Origin: Escherichia phage vB_EcoM-UFV06
Sequence record: OP555980.1
Direction: 5' to 3' (one strand)
DNA length: 64,000 nucleotides
In this document: positions 29,272 to 40,401 of the stretch, one piece after another
Layout: every line of letters starts with the position of its first letter
How positions within the stretch are numbered: position 1 is the first letter of the stretch
Made by a program: the position numbers and the translations under genes
Notes under the pieces: generated by a model
Databases searched by the model: none
What the model was told of the DNA's origin: nothing
The model's input: only the letters and a program-made list of their open reading frames with translations

Positions 29272-29633
29272 TACAAACTCTCGGTAAAGGTACGAGCGAT
29301 AACGTCGCGCTGCTGTTCCGGAGTCAGAGAGTTAAAGCGAACTGCATAACCGGATACACGGATGGTCAGCTGCGGATATTTTTCCGGATGCTTAACTGCA
29401 TCTTCCAGAGTTTCACGACGCAGAACGTTAACGTTCAGGTGTTGACCACCTTCAATTTTAACTGTAGGCTGTTGCTCAATTTCAATTTCACGGGCATGCA
29501 AACCGTAGAAAATTTCTGGGTCTACAAAAGAGTCCTCTTTAAAAGTTTTAGAGACAATAATTCGTGCTTGAATACCATCTTCAAAATAAATAGTACCTTT
29601 ATGCGTGCCTTCAAGAATTTGATATGCTTTCAT
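29271..29633 (-). CDS. Autonomous glycyl-radical cofactor (GrcA/YfiD-like)
   Basis: C-terminal about 60 aa ([59 protein letters not shown]) match my recollection of E. coli GrcA including the RVSGYAV glycyl-radical motif; the 3-prime half is visibly more GC-rich than its flanks. Confidence 0.85.
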
Positions 29634-29640
29634 ATAAACC

Positions 29641-29970
29641 TCAATTAGAAAATAAATTTATCCAAGATTGTTCTTTAATTAAAAATGGCTCAGAATCATA
29701 TGCCATTAAACTCTGCGTGATTAGTCCTTTAAAAGGTCCATCAATAAATTCCATGGTAAAATATGGAATTTTATTCATTAGCCGTGCGTTAGGAGCAGTA
29801 CATAAAACTCTGCATCCTTTGAATACGCCTTTTTGTAATTTGTATTGCTTAGGATAAAATTCGCTCAAGACGTTGTTATTTGCCAAAATTTCAAAATGAT
29901 TCACCAATTTATTTTTAATAGTTTTTGGCGAAAAATAAAGATATTCGAAAAGTTGCGTGTCTGTCATCAT
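29641..29970 (-). CDS. Hypothetical protein (about 110 aa)
   Basis: Probable ATG at 29970 abutting the downstream gene. Confidence 0.4.
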
Positions 29971-30554
29971 TGCATTCCGATTATGAAAAACTGTGGACGA
30001 GTAATACCACCAATGCAACATTTAATATTACAGCAGCAGTGTACAGTTTCAATATGGACACTATAAATCTTATCCATATCAGGAGATTTGACAGGTTCAT
30101 CAATTATATACAAAATTCGCGAAAGCGATAAACCTCTGAACTTGCTTCCTTTATTACCAATAAAACTGCGCACAGAATCAGCAAATAAACGAAAACGTAT
30201 ATCATCATTAGAATAACGCGAAAATTCCTTTTTAATGTTATTTGAAGAAATTTTAGCGTAAGCTGAAGTATTAGAAAGAACAATAACTGTTCCGCCATCA
30301 TACAACCAATTAGCGGCAAAATTAGTTACTGCAGTTGATTTACCGGATTGACGTCCACCATCTAGTCGAAGTGTGCAATACTGCTTAAGTAAGTCTTCAA
30401 ATGGTGGGATATAATCGTTTTTACAAATTTCTTCTACTCTAGCGTCAGAATGGTGTGTAAAAGCATTCATCAGGGATAGATAAGGACCAGTTAAAAATGT
30501 TCTCATTTTATTCTCTCTAAATTTGGGCCATTCCATGGCGCATGAATTGTCCAT
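29967..30554 (-). CDS. Hypothetical P-loop protein (195 aa)
   Basis: GGRQSGKST Walker A-like and ILYIIDEP Walker B-like; start uncertain. Confidence 0.4.
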   Translation of the reverse strand: MDNSCAMEWPKFRENKMRTFLTGPYLSLMNAFTHHSDARVEEICKNDYIPPFEDLLKQYCTLRLDGGRQSGKSTAVTNFAANWLYDGGTVIVLSNTSAYAKISSNNIKKEFSRYSNDDIRFRLFADSVRSFIGNKGSKFRGLSLSRILYIIDEPVKSPDMDKIYSVHIETVHCCCNIKCCIGGITRPQFFIIGMQ

Positions 30555-30659
30555 TTCTGTATTTACCCATTACCGCACTTGGGCTCGACCTTATTACAGG
30601 TTGGCGGGAATCCCTCACAGAATCATGAGGTCCAGCTTGTTCCCATATTTCTTATTTGC

Positions 30660-31133
30660 TTATTTGAATGATTTAACGTACTGAATAGAACCTTTACTAT
30701 TCACAAAGGCAATTTTACCATTTTTGTTATACATAGTAGCAGTACGTTGATAGCCATAAGTTTGTTTACCAGATTGATAACCAACTAATGCGAAATTATC
30801 TTCACCCATTTTATTCTGTTTAGCGCGAATGCGTTCATGACCATGTGCCATAAGAACCTTAGCATCACCAGTTGCAATGGACCGACGAGTTTTTTCATCT
30901 TCAACTGTATTAACAAAGTCGTCAAATGAATCAAATTTAGCATGAGATTTATTATACAGTTTTCCATCTACTGCATAATTATATCCTTGTACATCCATCT
31001 CAACTTCTGTACCATCATCTAATACCGCAGTAATTTTCTGTCCTTTTTTAAATTTCAAAAGATCAGTAAAAGATTCAGCAATAATTTGAGAATTAATAGC
31101 TGCTTCAGTAATAAATTCTTTATACGTTTTCAT
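30660..31133 (-). CDS. Internal (capsid-targeted) protein, ip3-position
   Basis: N-terminus MKTYKEFITE matches the capsid-targeting-sequence pattern with an I-x-E cleavage site; 157 aa. Confidence 0.55.
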   Translation of the reverse strand: MKTYKEFITEAAINSQIIAESFTDLLKFKKGQKITAVLDDGTEVEMDVQGYNYAVDGKLYNKSHAKFDSFDDFVNTVEDEKTRRSIATGDAKVLMAHGHERIRAKQNKMGEDNFALVGYQSGKQTYGYQRTATMYNKNGKIAFVNSKGSIQYVKSFK

Positions 31134-31149
31134 GTGTATCCTTTAATTT

Positions 31150-31467
31150 TTATTCTTTAGGGAAGTTTTTAGAATATGCATCATAAAGCTTATTTCCAAT
31201 ACGGCGGAAAACTCTAGCCGCAAAACGATTTTCTGGGTTTTTAATCATGATTTGCATCATATAAGTACCCGCGTCAGAAAGAGCTTCTTCATAGTACCCG
31301 TTAATTTCTTTAAGAGTCCTACGTTTACCACCAGGACCATCAACAGTGATTTTCCATTTACCTGTAGAAGTGCGACTTGGCGGTTCAACTTGTTCAATCC
31401 AGATATAACCGCCTTCTACACGCTGTCCTGCAACAGATTCTGCAATAAATTCTTTATACGTTTTCAT
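31150..31467 (-). CDS. Internal (capsid-targeted) protein, ip2-position
   Basis: N-terminus MKTYKEFIAE; 105 aa, basic. Confidence 0.55.
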   Translation of the reverse strand: MKTYKEFIAESVAGQRVEGGYIWIEQVEPPSRTSTGKWKITVDGPGGKRRTLKEINGYYEEALSDAGTYMMQIMIKNPENRFAARVFRRIGNKLYDAYSKNFPKE

Positions 31468-31504
31468 GTGTTTCCTTTAAATATTTTAATTAGTAACTGT
31501 GAAT

Positions 31505-31533
31505 ATACTATCACAGTTTTAGGAGAAAGTAAA
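31505..31533 (-). promoter_or_regulatory. Early promoter (sigma70-type)
   Basis: Minus-strand TTTACT, 17 bp, TG-n-TAGTAT. Confidence 0.5.
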
Positions 31534-31538
31534 CAACT

Positions 31539-32507
<969 letters not shown>

Positions 32508-32526
<19 letters not shown>

Positions 32527-32849
32527 TCAGTGATAAAGTTATTTAAATTTTGAGTGTATTTCTTTTCATCAAAAATCTTTTGTTGTCTGCGTAGCCGCCA
32601 TGGCATTTCAATGAACGTGTACCATATCCCAGATAATATTGCTGCTGTAAAAATATTAACAAGTATGGTTAAAAGAATCCAATCTCCTATTCTGTCCATT
32701 GGATTTTTTATAAAAAAGTAAAATACGAATGATGTCACAGGACCTATTAATACATCAGTAGGAATTAGCTGACGCTTTAGTTCATACTTCACAGGTTCAC
32801 TTGGAAGGTATAGTGATGGCTTTGACATATTCTCTACATTCCTTAACAA
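32508..32849 (-). CDS. Hypothetical membrane protein
   Basis: Two hydrophobic segments; start uncertain. Confidence 0.4.
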
Positions 32850-33402
32850 ATTTTTCTAATAATAAATCGCTTTCAAAATTGGGATTTTCCACGAATTTAT
32901 CAAAAAGATCATCAACAATAGTTAAGATATTCTTTTTACTAAGAATACACTTATTTTCATGCTTCGTTTCAGAATCAACTATAAGAGTAAAGAAATATTT
33001 CTTGCCCTGAAATTTTACAGTAGTATCAATATAGAATAAATTTGACTTTTGTAAATTACGTTTAAACCATGCATCACTTAAACTATAAACGCCAAGATAA
33101 TCATAATCGTCGTTTAAATAACAGACCGTCCATTCAGGAGAAACAAAATCAGTAAATTCAACGTCAAAATCGCATGTTAATGAATGAATTGATTCAATAC
33201 TGTTAATAAGTATTCCAGGACGTATTAAAGACTTTTTACCTTTATAAAATCCAGAAAGACTTTCATCAGTTTCATATGAAGAACCCCAATAATAATTACG
33301 TCCTTCTGCCATACGTTTAAGAGCATTTAATAATTGATCTGGAACATCAACCTGTCTTTGGAACTCTTCAAACATTGAATTGAAATCACTTTGCATTTTC
33401 AT
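32797..33402 (-). CDS. Hypothetical protein (201 aa)
   Basis: ORF. Confidence 0.45.
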   Translation of the reverse strand: MKMQSDFNSMFEEFQRQVDVPDQLLNALKRMAEGRNYYWGSSYETDESLSGFYKGKKSLIRPGILINSIESIHSLTCDFDVEFTDFVSPEWTVCYLNDDYDYLGVYSLSDAWFKRNLQKSNLFYIDTTVKFQGKKYFFTLIVDSETKHENKCILSKKNILTIVDDLFDKFVENPNFESDLLLEKFVKECREYVKAITIPSK

Positions 33403-33422
33403 TCCTACTTACTTCAAGTAAT

Positions 33423-33438
33423 AGGGGCCGAAGCCCCT
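33423..33438 (-). terminator. UUCG-tetraloop hairpin
   Basis: aggggc-cgaa-gcccct stem; weak U-run. Confidence 0.4.
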
Positions 33439-33443
33439 TATCA

Positions 33444-34037
33444 TTATTTCAGAGAATTAATATATTCCTGAACATCGGCAGAGGTAGTTTCAACCCCGGA
33501 AATATTACCGTTAAAGGTTTCAACTCGAGCAAGAGTATCTTCAATATCAACCTTAGTCAGTGCTGCAATTTCAACTACATCATCAGCAGTACTAATTCCG
33601 AGGGCATTCGCGGCGCGAGTTTCACGGATATATTCCAATTTAACTGCAAGTTCTTGGCGAGCATCATCCAATTCAACTACTTTCTTGGCGATTTCAATTC
33701 GCATTTCAGCATACCCATCAGCTTTAGTAGTTAACTGCTCAGCTGTTCGACGATATAGCAAGCCGAGTTTAGCATGCATTGTTACATCTTGACCTTCGGA
33801 AAGAAGCTTGCGAATTTCACGCTCTTTTGATTCGGCCTGTCGATTCTTTTCGATAACAAGTTCACGAATACGTTTTTCTTCATTAATAGATTTAACAGAA
33901 GCAGTTTTTAAATCTTTAATTTTATCAAGTAGTTTTGCTGCTGCAGCAGTATACTGTTCTTCAACAGATAGATTTTTAGCCATAGCAGAACCAAGTTTAG
34001 TGCGAATAAACTCAACAATTTTCTTCAGTGTGTTCAT
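33444..34037 (-). CDS. Hypothetical coiled-coil protein (197 aa)
   Basis: Heptad-rich, charged. Confidence 0.45.
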
Positions 34038-34080
34038 AGTATTTCCTTAGGTTGATTAAGATTTAAAATCCGTGAGAGTA

Positions 34081-34257
34081 TTATACTCCGGATAGTTTGT
34101 AAACTATTTCAACATCGCCTTTTGCTGCTTTATAACCTTCAGCCCAAGATATAACCGAGTTTTTATCCGAAGATTCAAATTCTGGCATTGGGCTTTCGCC
34201 AATGTTCACGCAGTATGTTTCTTCATTTTCGTCAAACCAAATAATTAAAGTAGTCAT
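34081..34257 (-). CDS. Hypothetical small protein (58 aa)
   Basis: Hand-translated ORF MTTLIIWFDENEETY...; below the track cutoff. Confidence 0.3.
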   Translation of the reverse strand: MTTLIIWFDENEETYCVNIGESPMPEFESSDKNSVISWAEGYKAAKGDVEIVYKLSGV

Positions 34258-34325
34258 TTATTTCTCCGTTTCTGTATTTGTTTTGATAAGTCTATAATAA
34301 CACCGTCCTTGGTGTTTGTACACAA

Positions 34326-34589
34326 TTATTTCATATTATTGAAATATTCTTCTGCAATTTCGTCGTTATCATGGTAAACTTTAGAAGACAGTTTAACATA
34401 ACCTTCAGCAGTGAACATGTTAATCACAACCTTTACAGTATACCACTGACCATCTTCATTACCCATTACTGCGTAAGTTTCAAACATCGGATGATCAGGA
34501 CCGATAACTTTAATATCATTCACTGTACGACCAAAATCTTCTGAAACACATTTCATAAAGAAGTTGAACAGTTCGCCGTAATTATCCAT
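34326..34589 (-). CDS. Hypothetical protein (about 87 aa)
   Basis: ATG at 34589 with GGAG Shine-Dalgarno downstream of an early promoter. Confidence 0.45.
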   Translation of the reverse strand: MDNYGELFNFFMKCVSEDFGRTVNDIKVIGPDHPMFETYAVMGNEDGQWYTVKVVINMFTAEGYVKLSSKVYHDNDEIAEEYFNNMK

Positions 34590-34632
34590 TTCATTCTCCA
34601 AGTTGTTTTCTGTATCAGTAGTTGATAGTTGT

Positions 34633-34661
34633 ATAGTACCATAGAAGAACAGGGATGTAAA
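34633..34661 (-). promoter_or_regulatory. Early promoter (sigma70-type)
   Basis: Minus-strand TTTACA, 17 bp, TACTAT with upstream A/T-rich element; same conserved block. Confidence 0.6.
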
Positions 34662-34795
34662 CAGTTTTGTGAAAAATTTTTTAAAAAGTTTTGGGGAATT
34701 CTAGGGCAAGGAGGGGAAATTAAAGGATAGGATAATATATTATAAAGGGTAGAAACTAAATGATGCCTAGAGAGGCCTGGAAAGGCTTAGATACC

Positions 34796-34826
34796 AAAAA
34801 GCCCCAACCTTTTGGTCGGGACTAAG
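34796..34826 (-). terminator. Intrinsic terminator, copy 1 of a 31-bp direct repeat
   Basis: Minus-strand 10-bp stem, AAAA loop, then UUUUU; 30/31 identical to 35351..35381. Confidence 0.7.
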
Positions 34827-34830
34827 AATG

Positions 34831-35304
34831 TTATTTGATTTGTTTAGCAGACCAAATGCGGTCTTTAATAATTTTTTGGATGTCTTCAACATACTCAAGA
34901 GAATGAGCATGTGGGTTATCTTTAAAGCTATGAGCACGAGCTAGCTTTTGGCCTTCAGTTTTGATTACTAAAAGCTCTTTAAGGATAGCTTCATATTTGG
35001 AGATAATTCCTTTAACGATATTTTTTTCTTGTGCGACTTTAGGATCTGCTTTAGGAGCAGGTTTACCCGAAGCCTTTGCAAAAGCAGCGCCAGTAGCAAC
35101 TAAACTTTTCCAGGCCATACTAACTGCATTTCCCGTAAATCCTTCCGCTTTCATGTCGCGTGCGAACTGGAATCGTGATTCATCAGAAGCATCTTTGTAA
35201 GAATATTTACCCGCTGCAATGGCTGCTTTTGCGACAGCTTGAATTTCGGTGCTAGATGCTTCATTTAACACCGCTTCATTTAAAAATTGAGTATATGATT
35301 TCAT
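34831..35304 (-). CDS. Putative capsid-targeted internal protein (157 aa), function unknown
   Basis: N-terminus MKSYTQFLNE resembles the capsid targeting sequence with an L-x-E site; late promoter upstream; flanked by duplicated terminators. Confidence 0.5.
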   Translation of the reverse strand: MKSYTQFLNEAVLNEASSTEIQAVAKAAIAAGKYSYKDASDESRFQFARDMKAEGFTGNAVSMAWKSLVATGAAFAKASGKPAPKADPKVAQEKNIVKGIISKYEAILKELLVIKTEGQKLARAHSFKDNPHAHSLEYVEDIQKIIKDRIWSAKQIK

Positions 35305-35340
35305 CTTATTTCCTGTTTTAATTCGTGGATTTAATATACT

Positions 35341-35348
35341 TATTTATA
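35341..35348 (-). promoter_or_regulatory. Late promoter box TATAAATA
   Basis: Perfect TATAAATA on the minus strand about 36 bp upstream of the ATG at 35304. Confidence 0.55.
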
Positions 35349-35350
35349 CT

Positions 35351-35381
35351 AAAAAGCCCCAACCTTTTGGTCGGGGCTAAG
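35351..35381 (-). terminator. Intrinsic terminator, copy 2 of the 31-bp direct repeat
   Basis: Minus-strand 10-bp stem, AAAA loop, then UUUUU. Confidence 0.7.
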
Positions 35382-35429
35382 CCTTGCGGCAACCTTGTCG
35401 GGGTTCCACCTGCTAAGGCAAGTGTTTGT

Positions 35430-35521
35430 ACGAAACGCCGGGATTCGAACCCGGTTATTAAGCAGTTGACGCTACTCAATATTTTTAAAAGGCCATATCT
35501 CGACCATATCCGAACGTTCCG
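35430..35521 (-). ncRNA. Candidate tRNA-like/structured small RNA
   Basis: Canonical T-arm ccggg-TTCGAAT-cccgg with an acceptor-like 7-bp pairing, but no clean D or anticodon arm; T4 is reported to encode stable RNAs near its tRNAs. Confidence 0.3.
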
Positions 35522-35685
35522 TCAAAAACGCTACTCGGCTTACGGCAAAGATATTTCCTCGAATCGATAATTCGGTGCGCCGTTTCTGCTGTGATAGTAA
35601 AGAGCCAGAACACAGTAAAACTGTGGGAGGAAACTATACTCCAGGGAACATCAGTCCGACGACTTACCGGTAGCGACCCGGTTTC

Positions 35686-36036
35686 TTAGTATTCTTTTAA
35701 AGCATCAATTTGTTCACGGCGTTTACGCCATAAATCAATTGCTTCATAAGCAGATTCAGCATTTCGAATTAGCCGACATTTATATAAAGACTTGTGATTT
35801 TGGTATTGCGTAGATAATGGAATTTTATCTAAAAGGTCTTTGCGTTCAAAGTATTCGTAACCATCTAAACCAAATGAACGATTTTTGAGAAATTGCCAAT
35901 GACCATATTCGTTTTCGACATAAACATAATCTGCATGCTGATAAAGCAAATTAATTACACGTTCAGAAATAACAGTATCATTATGATTAAAATAGAATGT
36001 TAAATCATGAACTACTAAATAAACATTACCTTTCAT
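35686..36036 (-). CDS. Hypothetical protein (116 aa)
   Basis: ORF immediately downstream of tRNA-Arg. Confidence 0.45.
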   Translation of the reverse strand: MKGNVYLVVHDLTFYFNHNDTVISERVINLLYQHADYVYVENEYGHWQFLKNRSFGLDGYEYFERKDLLDKIPLSTQYQNHKSLYKCRLIRNAESAYEAIDLWRKRREQIDALKEY

Positions 36037-36054
36037 ATTTTCCTCACTTATAAT

Positions 36055-36130
36055 TGGTCGAGGCAGTAGGGATCGAACCTACGACCCAGGACTTAGAAGG
36101 TCCTTGCTCTTCCTTCTGAGCTATGCCCCG
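36055..36130 (-). tRNA. tRNA-Arg (anticodon UCU)
   Basis: Hand-folded cloverleaf; anticodon loop CUUCUAA; CCA encoded. Confidence 0.8.
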
Positions 36131-36134
36131 TAAT

Positions 36135-36210
36135 TGGGGTGACCGATGGGAGTCGAACCCATGACTACGAGAATCACAATCTCGAGTTCTACCAACTGAA
36201 CTACGGCCAC
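36135..36210 (-). tRNA. tRNA-His (anticodon GUG)
   Basis: Cloverleaf; anticodon stem CGAGA/UCUCG, loop UUGUGAU; discriminator C73; no encoded G-1. Confidence 0.75.
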
Positions 36211-36324
36211 ATTAATACCTACTCCAACAATCATGATGTCTTCACACGAAATTAAGAGAAGAGTGATCAGTTCAACCCCTATAATCGCGTCAAGTAGATA
36301 TTAATGTGACAGTTGTCACAAATT

Positions 36325-36399
36325 TGGCGGACGTGATAGGATTCGAACCTATAACCAATCGCTTAACAGGCGATCGCTCTGCCATTGAGCTACACATCC
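36325..36399 (-). tRNA. tRNA-Asn (anticodon GUU)
   Basis: Cloverleaf; anticodon stem AUCGC/GCGAU, loop CUGUUAA. Confidence 0.75.
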
Positions 36400-36403
36400 A
36401 AAT

Positions 36404-36490
36404 TGGTGGGGAGTGATGGAGTCGAACCACCCGAGTCGCAATGACAATGAATTTACAGTCCACACCGCTACCTCTACGGGATAACTCCCC
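36404..36490 (-). tRNA. tRNA-Tyr (anticodon GUA), class II, probable
   Basis: 87 nt with long variable arm; GACUGUAAAU anticodon region as in bacterial tRNA-Tyr; anticodon stem has two G-U pairs. Confidence 0.55.
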
Positions 36491-36496
36491 TTAATT

Positions 36497-36571
36497 TGGT
36501 GGCCCTGGGTGGAATTGAACCACCATCTGGCGATTATGAGTCGCTTGCTTGAACCTTCCAGCTACAGGGCC
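36497..36571 (-). tRNA. tRNA with anticodon CAU (Ile2 or Met)
   Basis: Cloverleaf; loop CUCAUAA; T4 tRNA-Ile is reported to use a modified CAU-type anticodon. Confidence 0.7.
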
Positions 36572-36572
36572 T

Positions 36573-36648
36573 TGGTGCTGATTGACGGAATCGAACCGCC
36601 GACATCCTCATTACAAGTGAGGTGCTCTACCTACTGAGCTAAATCAGC
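36573..36648 (-). tRNA. tRNA-Thr (anticodon UGU)
   Basis: Cloverleaf; loop CUUGUAA. Confidence 0.8.
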
Positions 36649-36653
36649 AAAGC

Positions 36654-36743
36654 TGGCGGAGGCGATAGGATTTGAACCTATGAATCGCCGGAGCGACTGC
36701 CGGTTTTCAAGACCGGTGCATTAAACCACTCTGCCACGCCTCC
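36654..36743 (-). tRNA. tRNA-Ser (anticodon UGA), class II
   Basis: 90 nt; anticodon stem CCGGU/ACCGG, loop CUUGAAA; long variable arm. Confidence 0.8.
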
Positions 36744-36745
36744 AG

Positions 36746-36819
36746 TCTCCATACAAGGATTTGAACCTTGGACCTCCTGATCCCAAATCAGGCGCTCTAC
36801 CAAACTGAGCTACACGGAG
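36746..36819 (-). tRNA. tRNA-Pro (anticodon UGG)
   Basis: Cloverleaf; loop UUUGGGA; CCA not encoded. Confidence 0.75.
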
Positions 36820-36829
36820 TAAATTAAAT

Positions 36830-36903
<74 letters not shown>

Positions 36904-36908
36904 AAATT

Positions 36909-36995
36909 TGGTGCGAGAAGTGGGACTCGAACCCACAAGGAAATCATTCCGCAGCATTTTAAGTGCTGTGCCTTTACCAATTTGACCATTCTCGC
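36909..36995 (-). tRNA. tRNA-Leu (anticodon UAA), class II
   Basis: 87 nt; anticodon stem CAGCA/UGCUG, loop CUUAAAA. Confidence 0.8.
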
Positions 36996-36996
36996 G

Positions 36997-37069
36997 CTGG
37001 GAATAAAGGATTCGAACCTTTGCATCTAGCAGTCAAAGTGCTATGCCTTACCAACTTGGCTAATTCCCA
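36997..37069 (-). tRNA. tRNA-Gln (anticodon UUG)
   Basis: Cloverleaf; anticodon stem UAGCA/UGCUA, loop CUUUGAC; CCA not encoded. Confidence 0.75.
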
Positions 37070-37155
37070 ATTATTAACAAAGGCTCTTTAGCAAGAACCC
37101 TTGATGATAGAGGGTATTAATCAGTGCGGTATGAGTTAATAATAACAAATAATTC

Positions 37156-37680
37156 TTAAAGCAAATTAAACATTTTAACAGTCGGCAAAACAATTTCTTT
37201 TTCTATATAAGAGTATTTAACACTCTCAACTACACGCAAAAAATCATAATCATAATACTCAGAAGCACTGCCTAAAATATTAATAAGTCCTTCAAGCACT
37301 TTATTACCATTCACAAAGAATAAGTCAAATACACGTTCTTCGTCTTCTTCGGATTTATTACCAAGGTCAACTTCTATGTCAAAGACCTTTTTAATGAATT
37401 CTGGATAAAGTTGTTCTGAGAACAGTCCTTCAACCAAGTATTCATAAATAAAAAGCGATTGCTCGCTGAACAAGCCATTACCACAATAACGTTCAGCTTT
37501 AGTACTAGAATGTCTGCTTTTAAACTTCTTTAAAAGATATTGGAATTGTAAGATTTCATGCTCTTCTACGCCAAACAGTGTTTTAGTTTTATAGTTGTCA
37601 CCATCATTTTCCCAGGTAGTGACATCAATTACGTAACCCTGTGGAATTGTAGTACCTAAACAAATATTCATTTTCACCAC
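37156..37680 (-). CDS. Hypothetical protein (174 aa)
   Basis: ORF upstream of the tRNA cluster. Confidence 0.45.
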   Translation of the reverse strand: MVKMNICLGTTIPQGYVIDVTTWENDGDNYKTKTLFGVEEHEILQFQYLLKKFKSRHSSTKAERYCGNGLFSEQSLFIYEYLVEGLFSEQLYPEFIKKVFDIEVDLGNKSEEDEERVFDLFFVNGNKVLEGLINILGSASEYYDYDFLRVVESVKYSYIEKEIVLPTVKMFNLL

Positions 37681-37964
37681 GCTGCATTAATATACGTTTT
37701 CTGAATGCATTCAAGACCTAAAGGATTCTTGAAAATATCATATTCAAGAGGACCTTTTTCTGTTTCAATAAAGAAATCAAAATTTACTGTATTAAATTTA
37801 CGGTCTTCCTTCACTAATTTAACTTGAGAAGATGAACGGTCAACATAAACCTTTTCAACTTCAAAACATGTTAAAACGCCATAATCATCAATCAAGGCTT
37901 TAGCCGCGTCTTGATCATATTTATATCCATTTTCAATGGATGATACTTTCGCATAAAGAATCAT
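37674..37964 (-). CDS. Hypothetical protein (96 aa)
   Basis: ORF. Confidence 0.4.
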   Translation of the reverse strand: MILYAKVSSIENGYKYDQDAAKALIDDYGVLTCFEVEKVYVDRSSSQVKLVKEDRKFNTVNFDFFIETEKGPLEYDIFKNPLGLECIQKTYINAAW

Positions 37965-37966
37965 TA

Positions 37967-38371
37967 TTAACCTTTATCAACAATAGTATGTGTATGGGCA
38001 TTTACGATTTGCCACCAGTCAAAACTATCGCCAAATCGTTTTGATTTATTGTCTTCAATAATTTGGCGTAATTCATCTTCTGTTTCAGCATACGCAATCA
38101 AATCATCATATCCACCGCAAGGATAGTAATTATCGCCTGCGAACAAAAGAAAATTTACTTTAGATGGGTCTACATAATAATGCTCTTTAGGATATTTAGT
38201 TCCTTTCCAATCAGTTACTTCAACATAACGATAAGAAAATCCATTTTTACTTTCAACCCAACTCCACGCTTCAAAAGGAGTATTAAAAACTCTATCAGGT
38301 ATTAAATTACCTTCAAAATGAGAAGGATTTGCATAATCCCCAGCATAAACATAATATTCGTTAATATTCAT
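37967..38371 (-). CDS. Hypothetical protein (134 aa)
   Basis: ORF. Confidence 0.45.
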   Translation of the reverse strand: MNINEYYVYAGDYANPSHFEGNLIPDRVFNTPFEAWSWVESKNGFSYRYVEVTDWKGTKYPKEHYYVDPSKVNFLLFAGDNYYPCGGYDDLIAYAETEDELRQIIEDNKSKRFGDSFDWWQIVNAHTHTIVDKG

Positions 38372-38557
38372 TTATTCACCTTTAGAAATTTTATCCATAA
38401 CAATAGCGATTAAACCAATTAAAAATGCTACTACAAGTGAAAAAACATTTTCTGCTGTAGTCAATAATCCGCATATAAATCCAACAAACATTGAAAAACT
38501 AAAAGCGGAAGCAGAAATTGCAATAGCAACATTTCGAATTAATTCACAACGTTTCAT
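38372..38557 (-). CDS. Hypothetical small membrane protein (61 aa)
   Basis: Hydrophobic throughout; early promoter upstream. Confidence 0.4.
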   Translation of the reverse strand: MKRCELIRNVAIAISASAFSFSMFVGFICGLLTTAENVFSLVVAFLIGLIAIVMDKISKGE

Positions 38558-38585
38558 TTTATTCTCCTCGGTAGTTGATAGGGTA

Positions 38586-38614
38586 ATAGTATCACAACTA
38601 AAACCCTATGTAAA
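38586..38614 (-). promoter_or_regulatory. Early promoter (sigma70-type)
   Basis: Minus-strand TTTACA, 17 bp, TG-n-TACTAT; GAGGAG Shine-Dalgarno downstream. Confidence 0.6.
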
Positions 38615-38633
38615 CAACTTTGTGAAATATTTA

Positions 38634-38918
38634 TTACAAAAGATTTTTAGCAATAATTTTAAGCTGAGCTACTGAAATATGCTTGGCTTTAAACAAAGCA
38701 GTTTCTTCAGCAGGGGAGATAACGATTGTAGCACCATCTTTCTTAGCGGACCATCCATCACCCAGGTAAACAGTACCTTTGACTTCTTCGCCATCAACCA
38801 GGCTAATCATCGGTTTACCTTCACGTCCTTTGTTTGCTTTAATAACTTCAGAAGTAAGGGTCGCTTCAGTCAAAGTAGAAGCGTTAGTGGTTGAAGTGAA
38901 TTCTTGATAAGTTTTCAT
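38634..38918 (-). CDS. ipI: Internal protein I
   Basis: 94 aa; N-terminus MKTYQEF capsid-targeting sequence; position upstream of 57B. Confidence 0.7.
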   Translation of the reverse strand: MKTYQEFTSTTNASTLTEATLTSEVIKANKGREGKPMISLVDGEEVKGTVYLGDGWSAKKDGATIVISPAEETALFKAKHISVAQLKIIAKNLL

Positions 38919-38948
38919 TTTATTTTCCTAATTAATTTTGATGAGGTA

Positions 38949-38977
38949 ATAGTATCACTACCTCATCAGCATGTAAA
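38949..38977 (-). promoter_or_regulatory. Early promoter for ipI
   Basis: Minus-strand TTTACA, 17 bp, TACTAT; the -10 lies inside a perfect 10-bp inverted repeat. Confidence 0.6.
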
Positions 38978-38990
38978 CAACTTTGTGAAA

Positions 38991-39687
<697 letters not shown>

Positions 39688-39688
<1 letters not shown>

Positions 39689-40401
39689 TATAGTACCTTT
39701 AGTGTATTTTTAATTTTAGAAAAAAGTTCTTCAAGAGAACCATCGTTTGTAATTACTAAATCGCCATCACGAATTGGCAATCCAGCTTCTGTAATATGTG
39801 TATCATTGGATTTTTGACCAGGACGAACTACATGAATTACTGTAGCACCCATCGCCCTAGCCGCATCCATTTCATGATCTTGACGAGTATCAGGAACGAT
39901 ATAATAATCATAACCTGAGTTAAATTTATCAAGATAATCTAAAGCAAATAATTTTACCCAATACATGCGGTCGAAGTTATTAACAATCAAATCCGTACCT
40001 AGGGCTTGCATCAGACGACGGACTGACCATTGATCTTCAATATTATTTATAACGTCAGCAATCTTGTTAAATGCTACGAAATTAACTGCGTCATCAAAAA
40101 CAAACACACCTTTAATTGGGCTTTTACCATTAAGATAGCAAAATGCTTGTTCCATAATCGTGATTACTTCTAATTTAGTCAGATTTAAATTAGTCTCACG
40201 ATCATAGTCAATTCCTTCAAACTCTTTACGAGTTAAGCAAGGATAGCCAGTGTTTGCTGCAAATACACCCCATGCATAAGCCAATGCATCCTTAATAGGA
40301 CCAGCAAGTTGGTATTTAACTGCAGAATAATTGCTCATGATAAAATCAGCAGTAGTATCTTTTCCACTACGCTTTACACCACTTAAAAAGATTAGTTTCA
40401 T
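39688..40401 (-). CDS. 1: Deoxynucleoside monophosphate kinase
   Basis: P-loop LSGVKRSGKDT; N-terminus MKLIFLSGVKRSGKDTTADFIMSNY as recalled for T4 gp1; ATG at 40401. Confidence 0.85.

Follow-up and report, generated by a model that had tools for sequence, protein, structure and literature searches.

Probable internal head proteins with a shared capsid-targeting leader in a T4-like phage, and a candidate third internal-protein locus

Four open reading frames (ORFs) on the minus strand of the window (the whole 64-kb stretch of DNA that was analyzed) probably encode head-packaged, injected internal proteins of a T4-like Tequatrovirus, whose shared N-terminus would represent the capsid targeting sequence (CTS) of T4. 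Three of these ORFs correspond to the named proteins Ip10 (31150-31467), Ip4 or ipIV (30660-31133), and IPI (38634-38918). The fourth (34831-35304), here referred to as X, is proposed as a candidate internal protein encoded at a third locus, which is the modest new point of this analysis. A first-pass annotation of the window had interpreted the common N-terminus as a capsid-targeting leader carried by non-homologous bodies in hyperplastic internal-protein loci. The underlying observation was real, its central reading held and the interpretation was largely right; the phenomenon itself is textbook. Internal-protein polymorphism has been known since 1994, when Repoila et al. reportedly described a polymorphic set that included Ip4 and Ip10. 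The further suggestion that this phage injects an effector set of its own did not survive comparison with other genomes: Ip10, Ip4, and IPI had already been named, none of the four genes is private to the phage, and Ip4, Ip10, and X were found in 470, 189, and 511 phage records, respectively.

Genomic setting and capsid-targeting leader

When all six frames of the 64 kb were scanned, exactly four ORFs began with MK.Y..F. The ORFs of Ip4 (157 aa) and Ip10 (105 aa) both start with MKTYKEF, X (157 aa) starts with MKSYTQF, and IPI (94 aa) with MKTYQEF. All four were present at the coordinates given by the first-pass annotation, on the minus strand, and with an MK(T/S)Y..F leader, against a chance expectation of 0.07 (calculated from amino-acid frequencies for the 430 Met codons that open a reading frame of at least 60 aa). 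No match to MK.Y..F occurred in 100 first-order Markov simulations.

The 28-41 kb region is transcribed leftward and has kept the T4 gene order of 57A, 57B, the gene at the ipI position, trna.4-.2, the tRNA cluster, and rnaD plus rnaC, followed by e.8-e.x, nudE, e (lysozyme), two small genes, vs.8, and vs.7. Positions 29500-40000 were identical to Escherichia phage vB_EcoM-UFV09 (Tequatrovirus; MZ291552.2), and positions 30000-39500 were identical in phages UFV05, UFV10, and UFV11. In the UFV09 record, all four genes carry the label "hypothetical protein," and prohead core, scaffold, and capsid genes are annotated in a block matching T4 67, 68, 21, and 22, with the protease not named as such. 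UFV09 was also identical to the window at positions 1-89, and the last 112 bases of the window mismatched MZ291552.2 at the collinear offset; either an indel relative to this record is located somewhere beyond about 40000 or the window derives from a sibling phage.

In mutagenesis of the IPIII leader by Mullaney and Black, targeting was assigned to residues 4 and 7 and processing to residues 8 and 10, and CTS function has been demonstrated directly with foreign proteins (PMC9026906). Y4, F7, and an (L/I)-x-E motif within the first 20 residues were present in four out of four ORFs. Moreover, Ip4, Ip10, and X contained L or I at position 8 and E at position 10, as in IPII and IPIII. Judged from the motif alone, candidate cleavage motifs for the prohead protease gp21 were ITE10 and IAE20 (Ip4), IAE10 (Ip10), LNE10 and LNE15 (X), and LTE18 (IPI). 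The predicted mature products had masses of 8-16.5 kDa and pI values of 9.0-9.6. At the DNA level, the leaders of Ip4 and Ip10 were identical at 28 out of 30 nt. Only 14-22 out of 30 nt of the X leader were identical to those of the other leaders, with Y4, F7, L8, and E10 all kept; this retention of functional residues in a divergent DNA sequence argues for selection on the peptide. In line with the first-pass annotation, the bodies showed no similarity to each other. In an all-against-all BLASTP comparison, most pairs were alike only in the first 11-17 residues, and the longer, weak alignments that involved Ip4 (E about 1e-5 to 1e-3) were leader-anchored.

In the proposed mechanism, the internal proteins would be made while proheads assemble, and the CTS, chiefly through the aromatic residue 4 and Phe7, would bind the scaffolding core. 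The leader would then be removed by gp21, which would cut after the Glu of (L/I)-x-E (residue 10, or residue 18 in IPI). The small, basic mature proteins would stay with the DNA in the head, be ejected with it into the cell, and there, ahead of all phage gene expression, neutralize the nucleases with which the host attacks glucosyl-hydroxymethylcytosine DNA. The steps from synthesis to ejection have been shown experimentally for T4 IPI-III, and by sequence similarity the four proteins of the window would follow the same route.

A fifth CTS-like leader was observed outside the window, in the UFV09 genome (MZ291552.2 17356-17520, minus strand). The gene adjoins the primase gene and encodes a 54-aa product that begins MKTYKEFIKE/DMVAGDSGG... 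(here and below, a slash follows the Glu of a cleavage motif). Similar sequences, always labelled hypothetical, are present in 1228 phage records, among them those of T4 and of phages of Acinetobacter and Aeromonas. In distant relatives the match does not start until residue 10, and conservation may therefore not extend to the leader.

Internal proteins Ip10, Ip4, and IPI

The first-pass annotation had assigned the ORFs downstream of e to the ip3 and ip2 positions. Both are indeed located there, in the reverse of the order given: the 105-aa ORF adjoins e and occupies the ipIII position, and the 157-aa ORF occupies the ipII position. The lengths that it had given for T4 IPIII (193 aa) and IPII (100 aa) were correct. 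Ip4 (30660-31133, minus strand; leader MKTYKEFITE/AAINSQIIAE/S; mature protein 15.5-16.5 kDa, pI about 9.2) showed 99.4% identity to T2 ipIV, AR1 Ip4, and PST ipIV, and matched Pfam DUF7412 (E = 1.7e-95) and PHROG 3155, "internal virion protein." E10 and E20, the latter forming the second site I-A-E/S, were invariant in 14 homologs, and 64 columns of the body were invariant across 14 homologs down to 61% identity. Ip10 (31150-31467, minus strand; leader MKTYKEFIAE/S; mature protein 95 aa, pI 9.6) showed 98% identity to PP01 "ip10" and 70% identity to Ip10 of VR25 and SP18. It matched PHROG 3966 (function unknown) and no NCBIfam family.

The Ip4 start codon lies 16 nt past the Ip10 stop codon, and early-type PeSL (promoter-early stem-loop) promoters precede Ip10 and IPI. 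No exact late promoter was found within 400 nt of Ip10, Ip4, or IPI; the late promoters closest to these genes precede e (32047-32067). Late supply of these three proteins is therefore assumed to depend on read-through transcription that starts at the late promoters preceding e or at other promoters upstream.

The expectation that T4 internal proteins would resemble those of the window in the leader only was borne out for the ORFs at 30660 and 31150, compared with IPIII and IPII, and failed for the ORF at 38634, which is a simple IPI ortholog. This ORF (38634-38918, minus strand; leader MKTYQEFTSTTNASTLTE/A; mature IPI* 76 aa) showed 90.5% overall identity to T4 IPI, with 73 of the 76 mature residues identical. 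It matched Pfam IPI_T4 (PF11634) over profile positions 1-76 of 76 (E = 1.3e-51; 173 bits, cut-off 25), a profile to which the other three ORFs gave no match, and it belonged to no NCBIfam family. As in T4, the gene is located between 57B and trna.4 and its leader ends in (L/I)TE/A. The leaders differ in length, with 18 residues in the window (MKTYQEFTSTTNASTLTE) and 19 in T4 (MKTFKEFTSTTTPVSTITE), and the processing site LTE18/A corresponds to that of T4. Three substitutions, I28V, A65V, and H67Q, separate the mature proteins. T4 IPI/IPI* inhibits GmrSD, a type IV restriction enzyme found in E. coli CT596. In view of its near-identity to T4 IPI, the window protein would likewise neutralize a host nuclease, and it very probably keeps the CT596 GmrSD target.

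A distant homology between Ip4 and IPI was also considered, on account of a BLASTP match (E = 7e-4), a match to PHROG 4363 (E = 0.007), and a match of the DUF7412 profile to IPI (E = 0.097). It was ruled out: the signal came entirely from the leader, and mature Ip4 aligned with IPI* at E = 14.

The T4 proteins Ip1, Ip2, and Ip3 each inhibit one different GmrSD-type type IV restriction enzyme, with no cross-protection (PMC12373910), and the GmrSD enzymes of ECOR21 and ECOR17 have been identified as the targets of injected IPII and IPIII (Ip2 and Ip3; Silas et al., 2025; PMC12373910). A further CTS protein, Bas37_0260, encoded at the ipI locus, inhibits McrBC (bioRxiv 10.1101/2025.11.20.689424). 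By extrapolation from these analogs, Ip4, Ip10, and X may also neutralize host nucleases, and injected inhibition of modification-dependent restriction enzymes is the most likely function of the set, which for Ip4, Ip10, and X we infer. Fold searches detected no enzymatic or known inhibitor fold and gave no support either way for nuclease inhibition. A sequence search of PDB chains with Ip4, Ip10, and X returned nothing credible, the best match being a designed protein (E = 6e-4) with no qualifying aligned stretch.

Similarities to curli inhibitors, all far below threshold, were also seen. Ip10 matched Pfam CsgH (E = 0.096) and PDB entry 2n59, also CsgH (E = 0.37), and Ip4 matched the NCBIfam curli synthesis inhibitor family CrliSynInhib (E = 0.002), scoring 17 bits where the cut-off is 300. 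The coincidence is probably noise.

The proteins might also be packaged with no specific host target, acting as basic counter-ions or scaffold helpers whose diverse bodies reflect weak constraint rather than an arms race. The basic character of all mature products fits such a role, as do the head-assembly defects of T4 IPIII and triple-IP mutants, the presence of about 300-370 copies of each protein per head (PMC9026906), and the outcome of the fold searches. We nevertheless consider it improbable. Weak constraint does not predict the 64 invariant columns of Ip4, a degree of body conservation that fits a specific interaction better than a simple counter-ion role. Furthermore, four out of four CTS proteins tested to date have specific type IV restriction targets, with no cross-protection, and cassettes turn over by presence and absence between very close phages.

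A candidate internal protein between e.8 and rnaC

The placement of the four genes in internal-protein loci applied to Ip10, Ip4, and IPI but not to X, which is located between e.8 and rnaC, outside both recognized internal-protein loci. Two Ip loci were described by Silas et al. (2025; PMC12373910), and the e.8-rnaC site was absent from the published descriptions of Ip loci that were consulted. X (34831-35304, minus strand; leader MKSYTQFLNE/AVLNE/A) would have a mature mass of about 15.5-16 kDa and a pI of about 9.5, and its predicted structure is all-helical with two domains. The gene is absent from T4, T2, and PST. Among the 511 phage records that contain it, X was labelled "hypothetical protein" or was unannotated in every row sampled; it matched PHROG 2280 (function unknown) and no NCBIfam family. 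The label "Internal head protein" is attached to only one member of its cluster, a distant homolog from Klebsiella phage KPKp. Of the four leaders, that of X (MKSYTQFLNE) diverges most, and a second cleavage motif, LNE/A, follows it at residue 15. In homologs from other genera, the leader was kept down to about 40% identity and the C-terminal half of the body diverged.

A perfect match to the T4-type late promoter, TATAAATA (35341-35348, minus strand), is located 44 nt upstream of the X start codon, directly after an upstream terminator. This promoter recurs at -44 to -48 in phages fPS-2, fD1, and KAW1E185, and a Jiaodavirus homolog of X (about 42% identity) has a late promoter at -44 and the leader MKFKEFLAE/A. 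X is flanked by two 36-nt copies of a terminator hairpin that are 94% identical, one downstream (34791-34826, minus strand; 10-bp stem followed by a T run) and one upstream (35346-35381, minus strand; 10-bp stem). T4 and T2 have a single terminator copy at this site and no X. On a plausible and still tentative reading, X is a real, hitherto unrecognized internal protein that marks a third internal-protein locus of T4-like phages and is injected against a host defense other than those targeted by Ip1-3. As part of the same reading, the locus would constitute a self-contained terminator-late promoter-gene-terminator unit, present in more than 500 sequenced phages of several genera.

Published proteome data bear on the packaging of X. 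In an LC-MS/MS analysis of purified virions of Yersinia phage fD1, g140, which is 98-99% identical to X, was particle-associated at full criteria; the same applied to g129 (the Ip4 ortholog) and g146 (the IPI ortholog), but not to the neighboring g128, g139, and g145 (PMC8309999 Table S3). Since DenV and RIIA are also among the 113 proteins of the fD1 proteome, a particle-associated call lacks specificity, and this result is supportive rather than decisive.

X could alternatively be a late cytoplasmic protein that has a CTS-like N-terminus by descent or by chance and is not packaged, with only three of the four genes belonging to the system. Its position outside both classical loci, the hypothetical or unannotated status in all sampled rows of the 511 records, a PHROG family (2280) without assigned function, a leader with only 14-22 out of 30 nt in common with the others, and the permissiveness of the 113-protein fD1 proteome are all compatible with this explanation, which we nonetheless regard as rather unlikely. 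All four experimentally defined CTS positions (Y4, F7, L8, and E10) are kept in X, together with the second LNE/A site, and conservation of the leader extends to homologs of only about 40% identity. Packaging of X is further consistent with a dedicated late promoter, which suits the timing of head assembly, with a small, basic mature product, with the finding of the fD1 ortholog, and not of its neighbors, in virions at full criteria, and with the "Internal head protein" label of the KPKp homolog.

Several other features of this neighborhood were noted. By alignment with T4, an rnaC homolog was located at 35429-35567 (98.6% identical to T4) and an rnaD homolog at 35574-35686 (79%). At Rfam gathering thresholds, a search of 30000-39500 returned only 10 tRNAs and no match for rnaC or rnaD. 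The GenBank record places short "hypothetical protein" ORFs at 35318-35479 and 35485-35613, over rnaC and rnaD; these ORFs are probably spurious. The tRNA cluster (36055-37069) contains 11 genes (Arg, His, Asn, Tyr, Met, Thr, Ser, Pro, Gly, Leu, and Gln), against 8 in T4, and contains neither tRNA-Ile nor the segB homing endonuclease gene. A 116-aa ORF between rnaD and tRNA-Arg (35686-36036) is present in T2 and not in T4.

Cassette boundaries, turnover, and known systems

Ip10 is bounded by a 48-nt direct repeat, whose two copies (31104-31151 and 31438-31485, minus strand) are 90% identical and comprise the ribosome-binding site and the leader codons of Ip4 and Ip10, respectively. In T2 and KAW1E185, which lack Ip10, a single segment with leader and ribosome-binding site aligns with both copies, so Ip10 represents an indel bounded by leader codons. 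Alignment of window positions 31435-32100 with T4 extended from gene e across the initial 33 nt of ipIII, where it ended. Upstream of Ip10, a PeSL-like early promoter with a stem-loop (31505-31540, minus strand; TTTACT-N17-TAGTAT) belongs to repeat family D2, which is common to both PeSLs that flank IPI.

The repeat, 90% identical and marking the exact boundary of the Ip10 indel, and the break of T4 homology right after the leader would also be expected if the leader were conserved chiefly as a DNA module, serving as recombination substrate and in translation initiation, with the protein motif as a by-product. That the motif is a mere by-product is quite improbable: the X and IPI leaders are poorly conserved as DNA (14-22 out of 30 nt) and keep the functional residues, foreign proteins have served to demonstrate CTS function directly, and substitution of Y4 or F7 costs packaging, which points to a role at the protein level. 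A DNA role is, moreover, compatible with a capsid-targeting function of the leader and would add to this function rather than replace it.

IPI is bracketed by PeSL modules located downstream (38575-38628, minus strand; early promoter TTTACA-N17-TACTAT with a stem-loop) and upstream (38938-38991, minus strand; promoter-like match at 38977-38949) that are 81% identical. Both fit the PST/T4 PeSL consensus TTTACW-N17-TAYWAT (Comeau et al., 2014; PMC4122927). A further PeSL-type promoter with a stem-loop (TTTACA-N17-TACTAT), 67% identical to the two IPI-flanking PeSLs, was observed upstream of e.8 at 34622-34675.

The content of the loci varied between phages. Downstream of e, T4 encodes IPIII and IPII, PST encodes IPIII and Ip4, the window encodes Ip10 and Ip4, and T2, KAW1E185, fPS-2, and fD1 encode Ip4. 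X is present at the e.8 locus in the window, KAW1E185, fPS-2, and fD1. At the ipI locus, IPI is found alone in T4, fPS-2, fD1, and the window, and together with a second small CTS protein in KAW1E185; T2 has Ip5 and Ip7 at this locus, and PST has IpV and IpVI. Each variable cassette is an indel flanked by short direct repeats, and the cassettes would be gained and lost by recombination between these repeats, which consist of leader and ribosome-binding-site codons (Ip10), terminator hairpins (X), or PeSL promoter modules (IPI). The gene for endonuclease V (denV) was not found in the window by tblastn. It follows ipII in T4 (compare window 30555-30659) and lies between Ip4 and e in fD1. Within this hyperplastic region, denV thus seems to behave as a further cassette that can be relocated or lost.

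Internal proteins take effect before phage gene expression begins. In recent work, every one that was tested disarmed a modification-dependent restriction enzyme of its own, different from those of the others; internal proteins therefore contribute to the host range of T-even phages, including candidates for therapy. In this context the window offers nothing new in principle, and adds Ip4, Ip10, and X as three candidates whose cassettes are cleanly delimited. Of these, X is a widespread gene that annotation pipelines have missed, outside the two loci that are currently searched.

Ip4 and Ip10 resemble T4 IPII and IPIII in their locus downstream of e, in a 10-residue CTS that ends in E, in the small size and basic character of the proteins, and in their cassette logic. 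They differ in their bodies: matches of Ip10 and Ip4 to IPIII and IPII were confined to the first 11-14 residues, with one exception, a weak, leader-anchored alignment of Ip4 with T4 IPII (27% identity, E = 2e-5). Ip4 of T2, AR1, and PST and Ip10 of PP01, SP18, and VR25 are the same proteins as those of the window, with no material difference. Arbiol et al. are said to have described PeSLs in 2010 as mobile regulatory cassettes of T4-type phages. The modules that bracket IPI are like these cassettes, with further copies preceding Ip10 and e.8. Unlike PeSL cassettes, Ip10 is bounded by leader codons, and X by a terminator hairpin followed by a late promoter.
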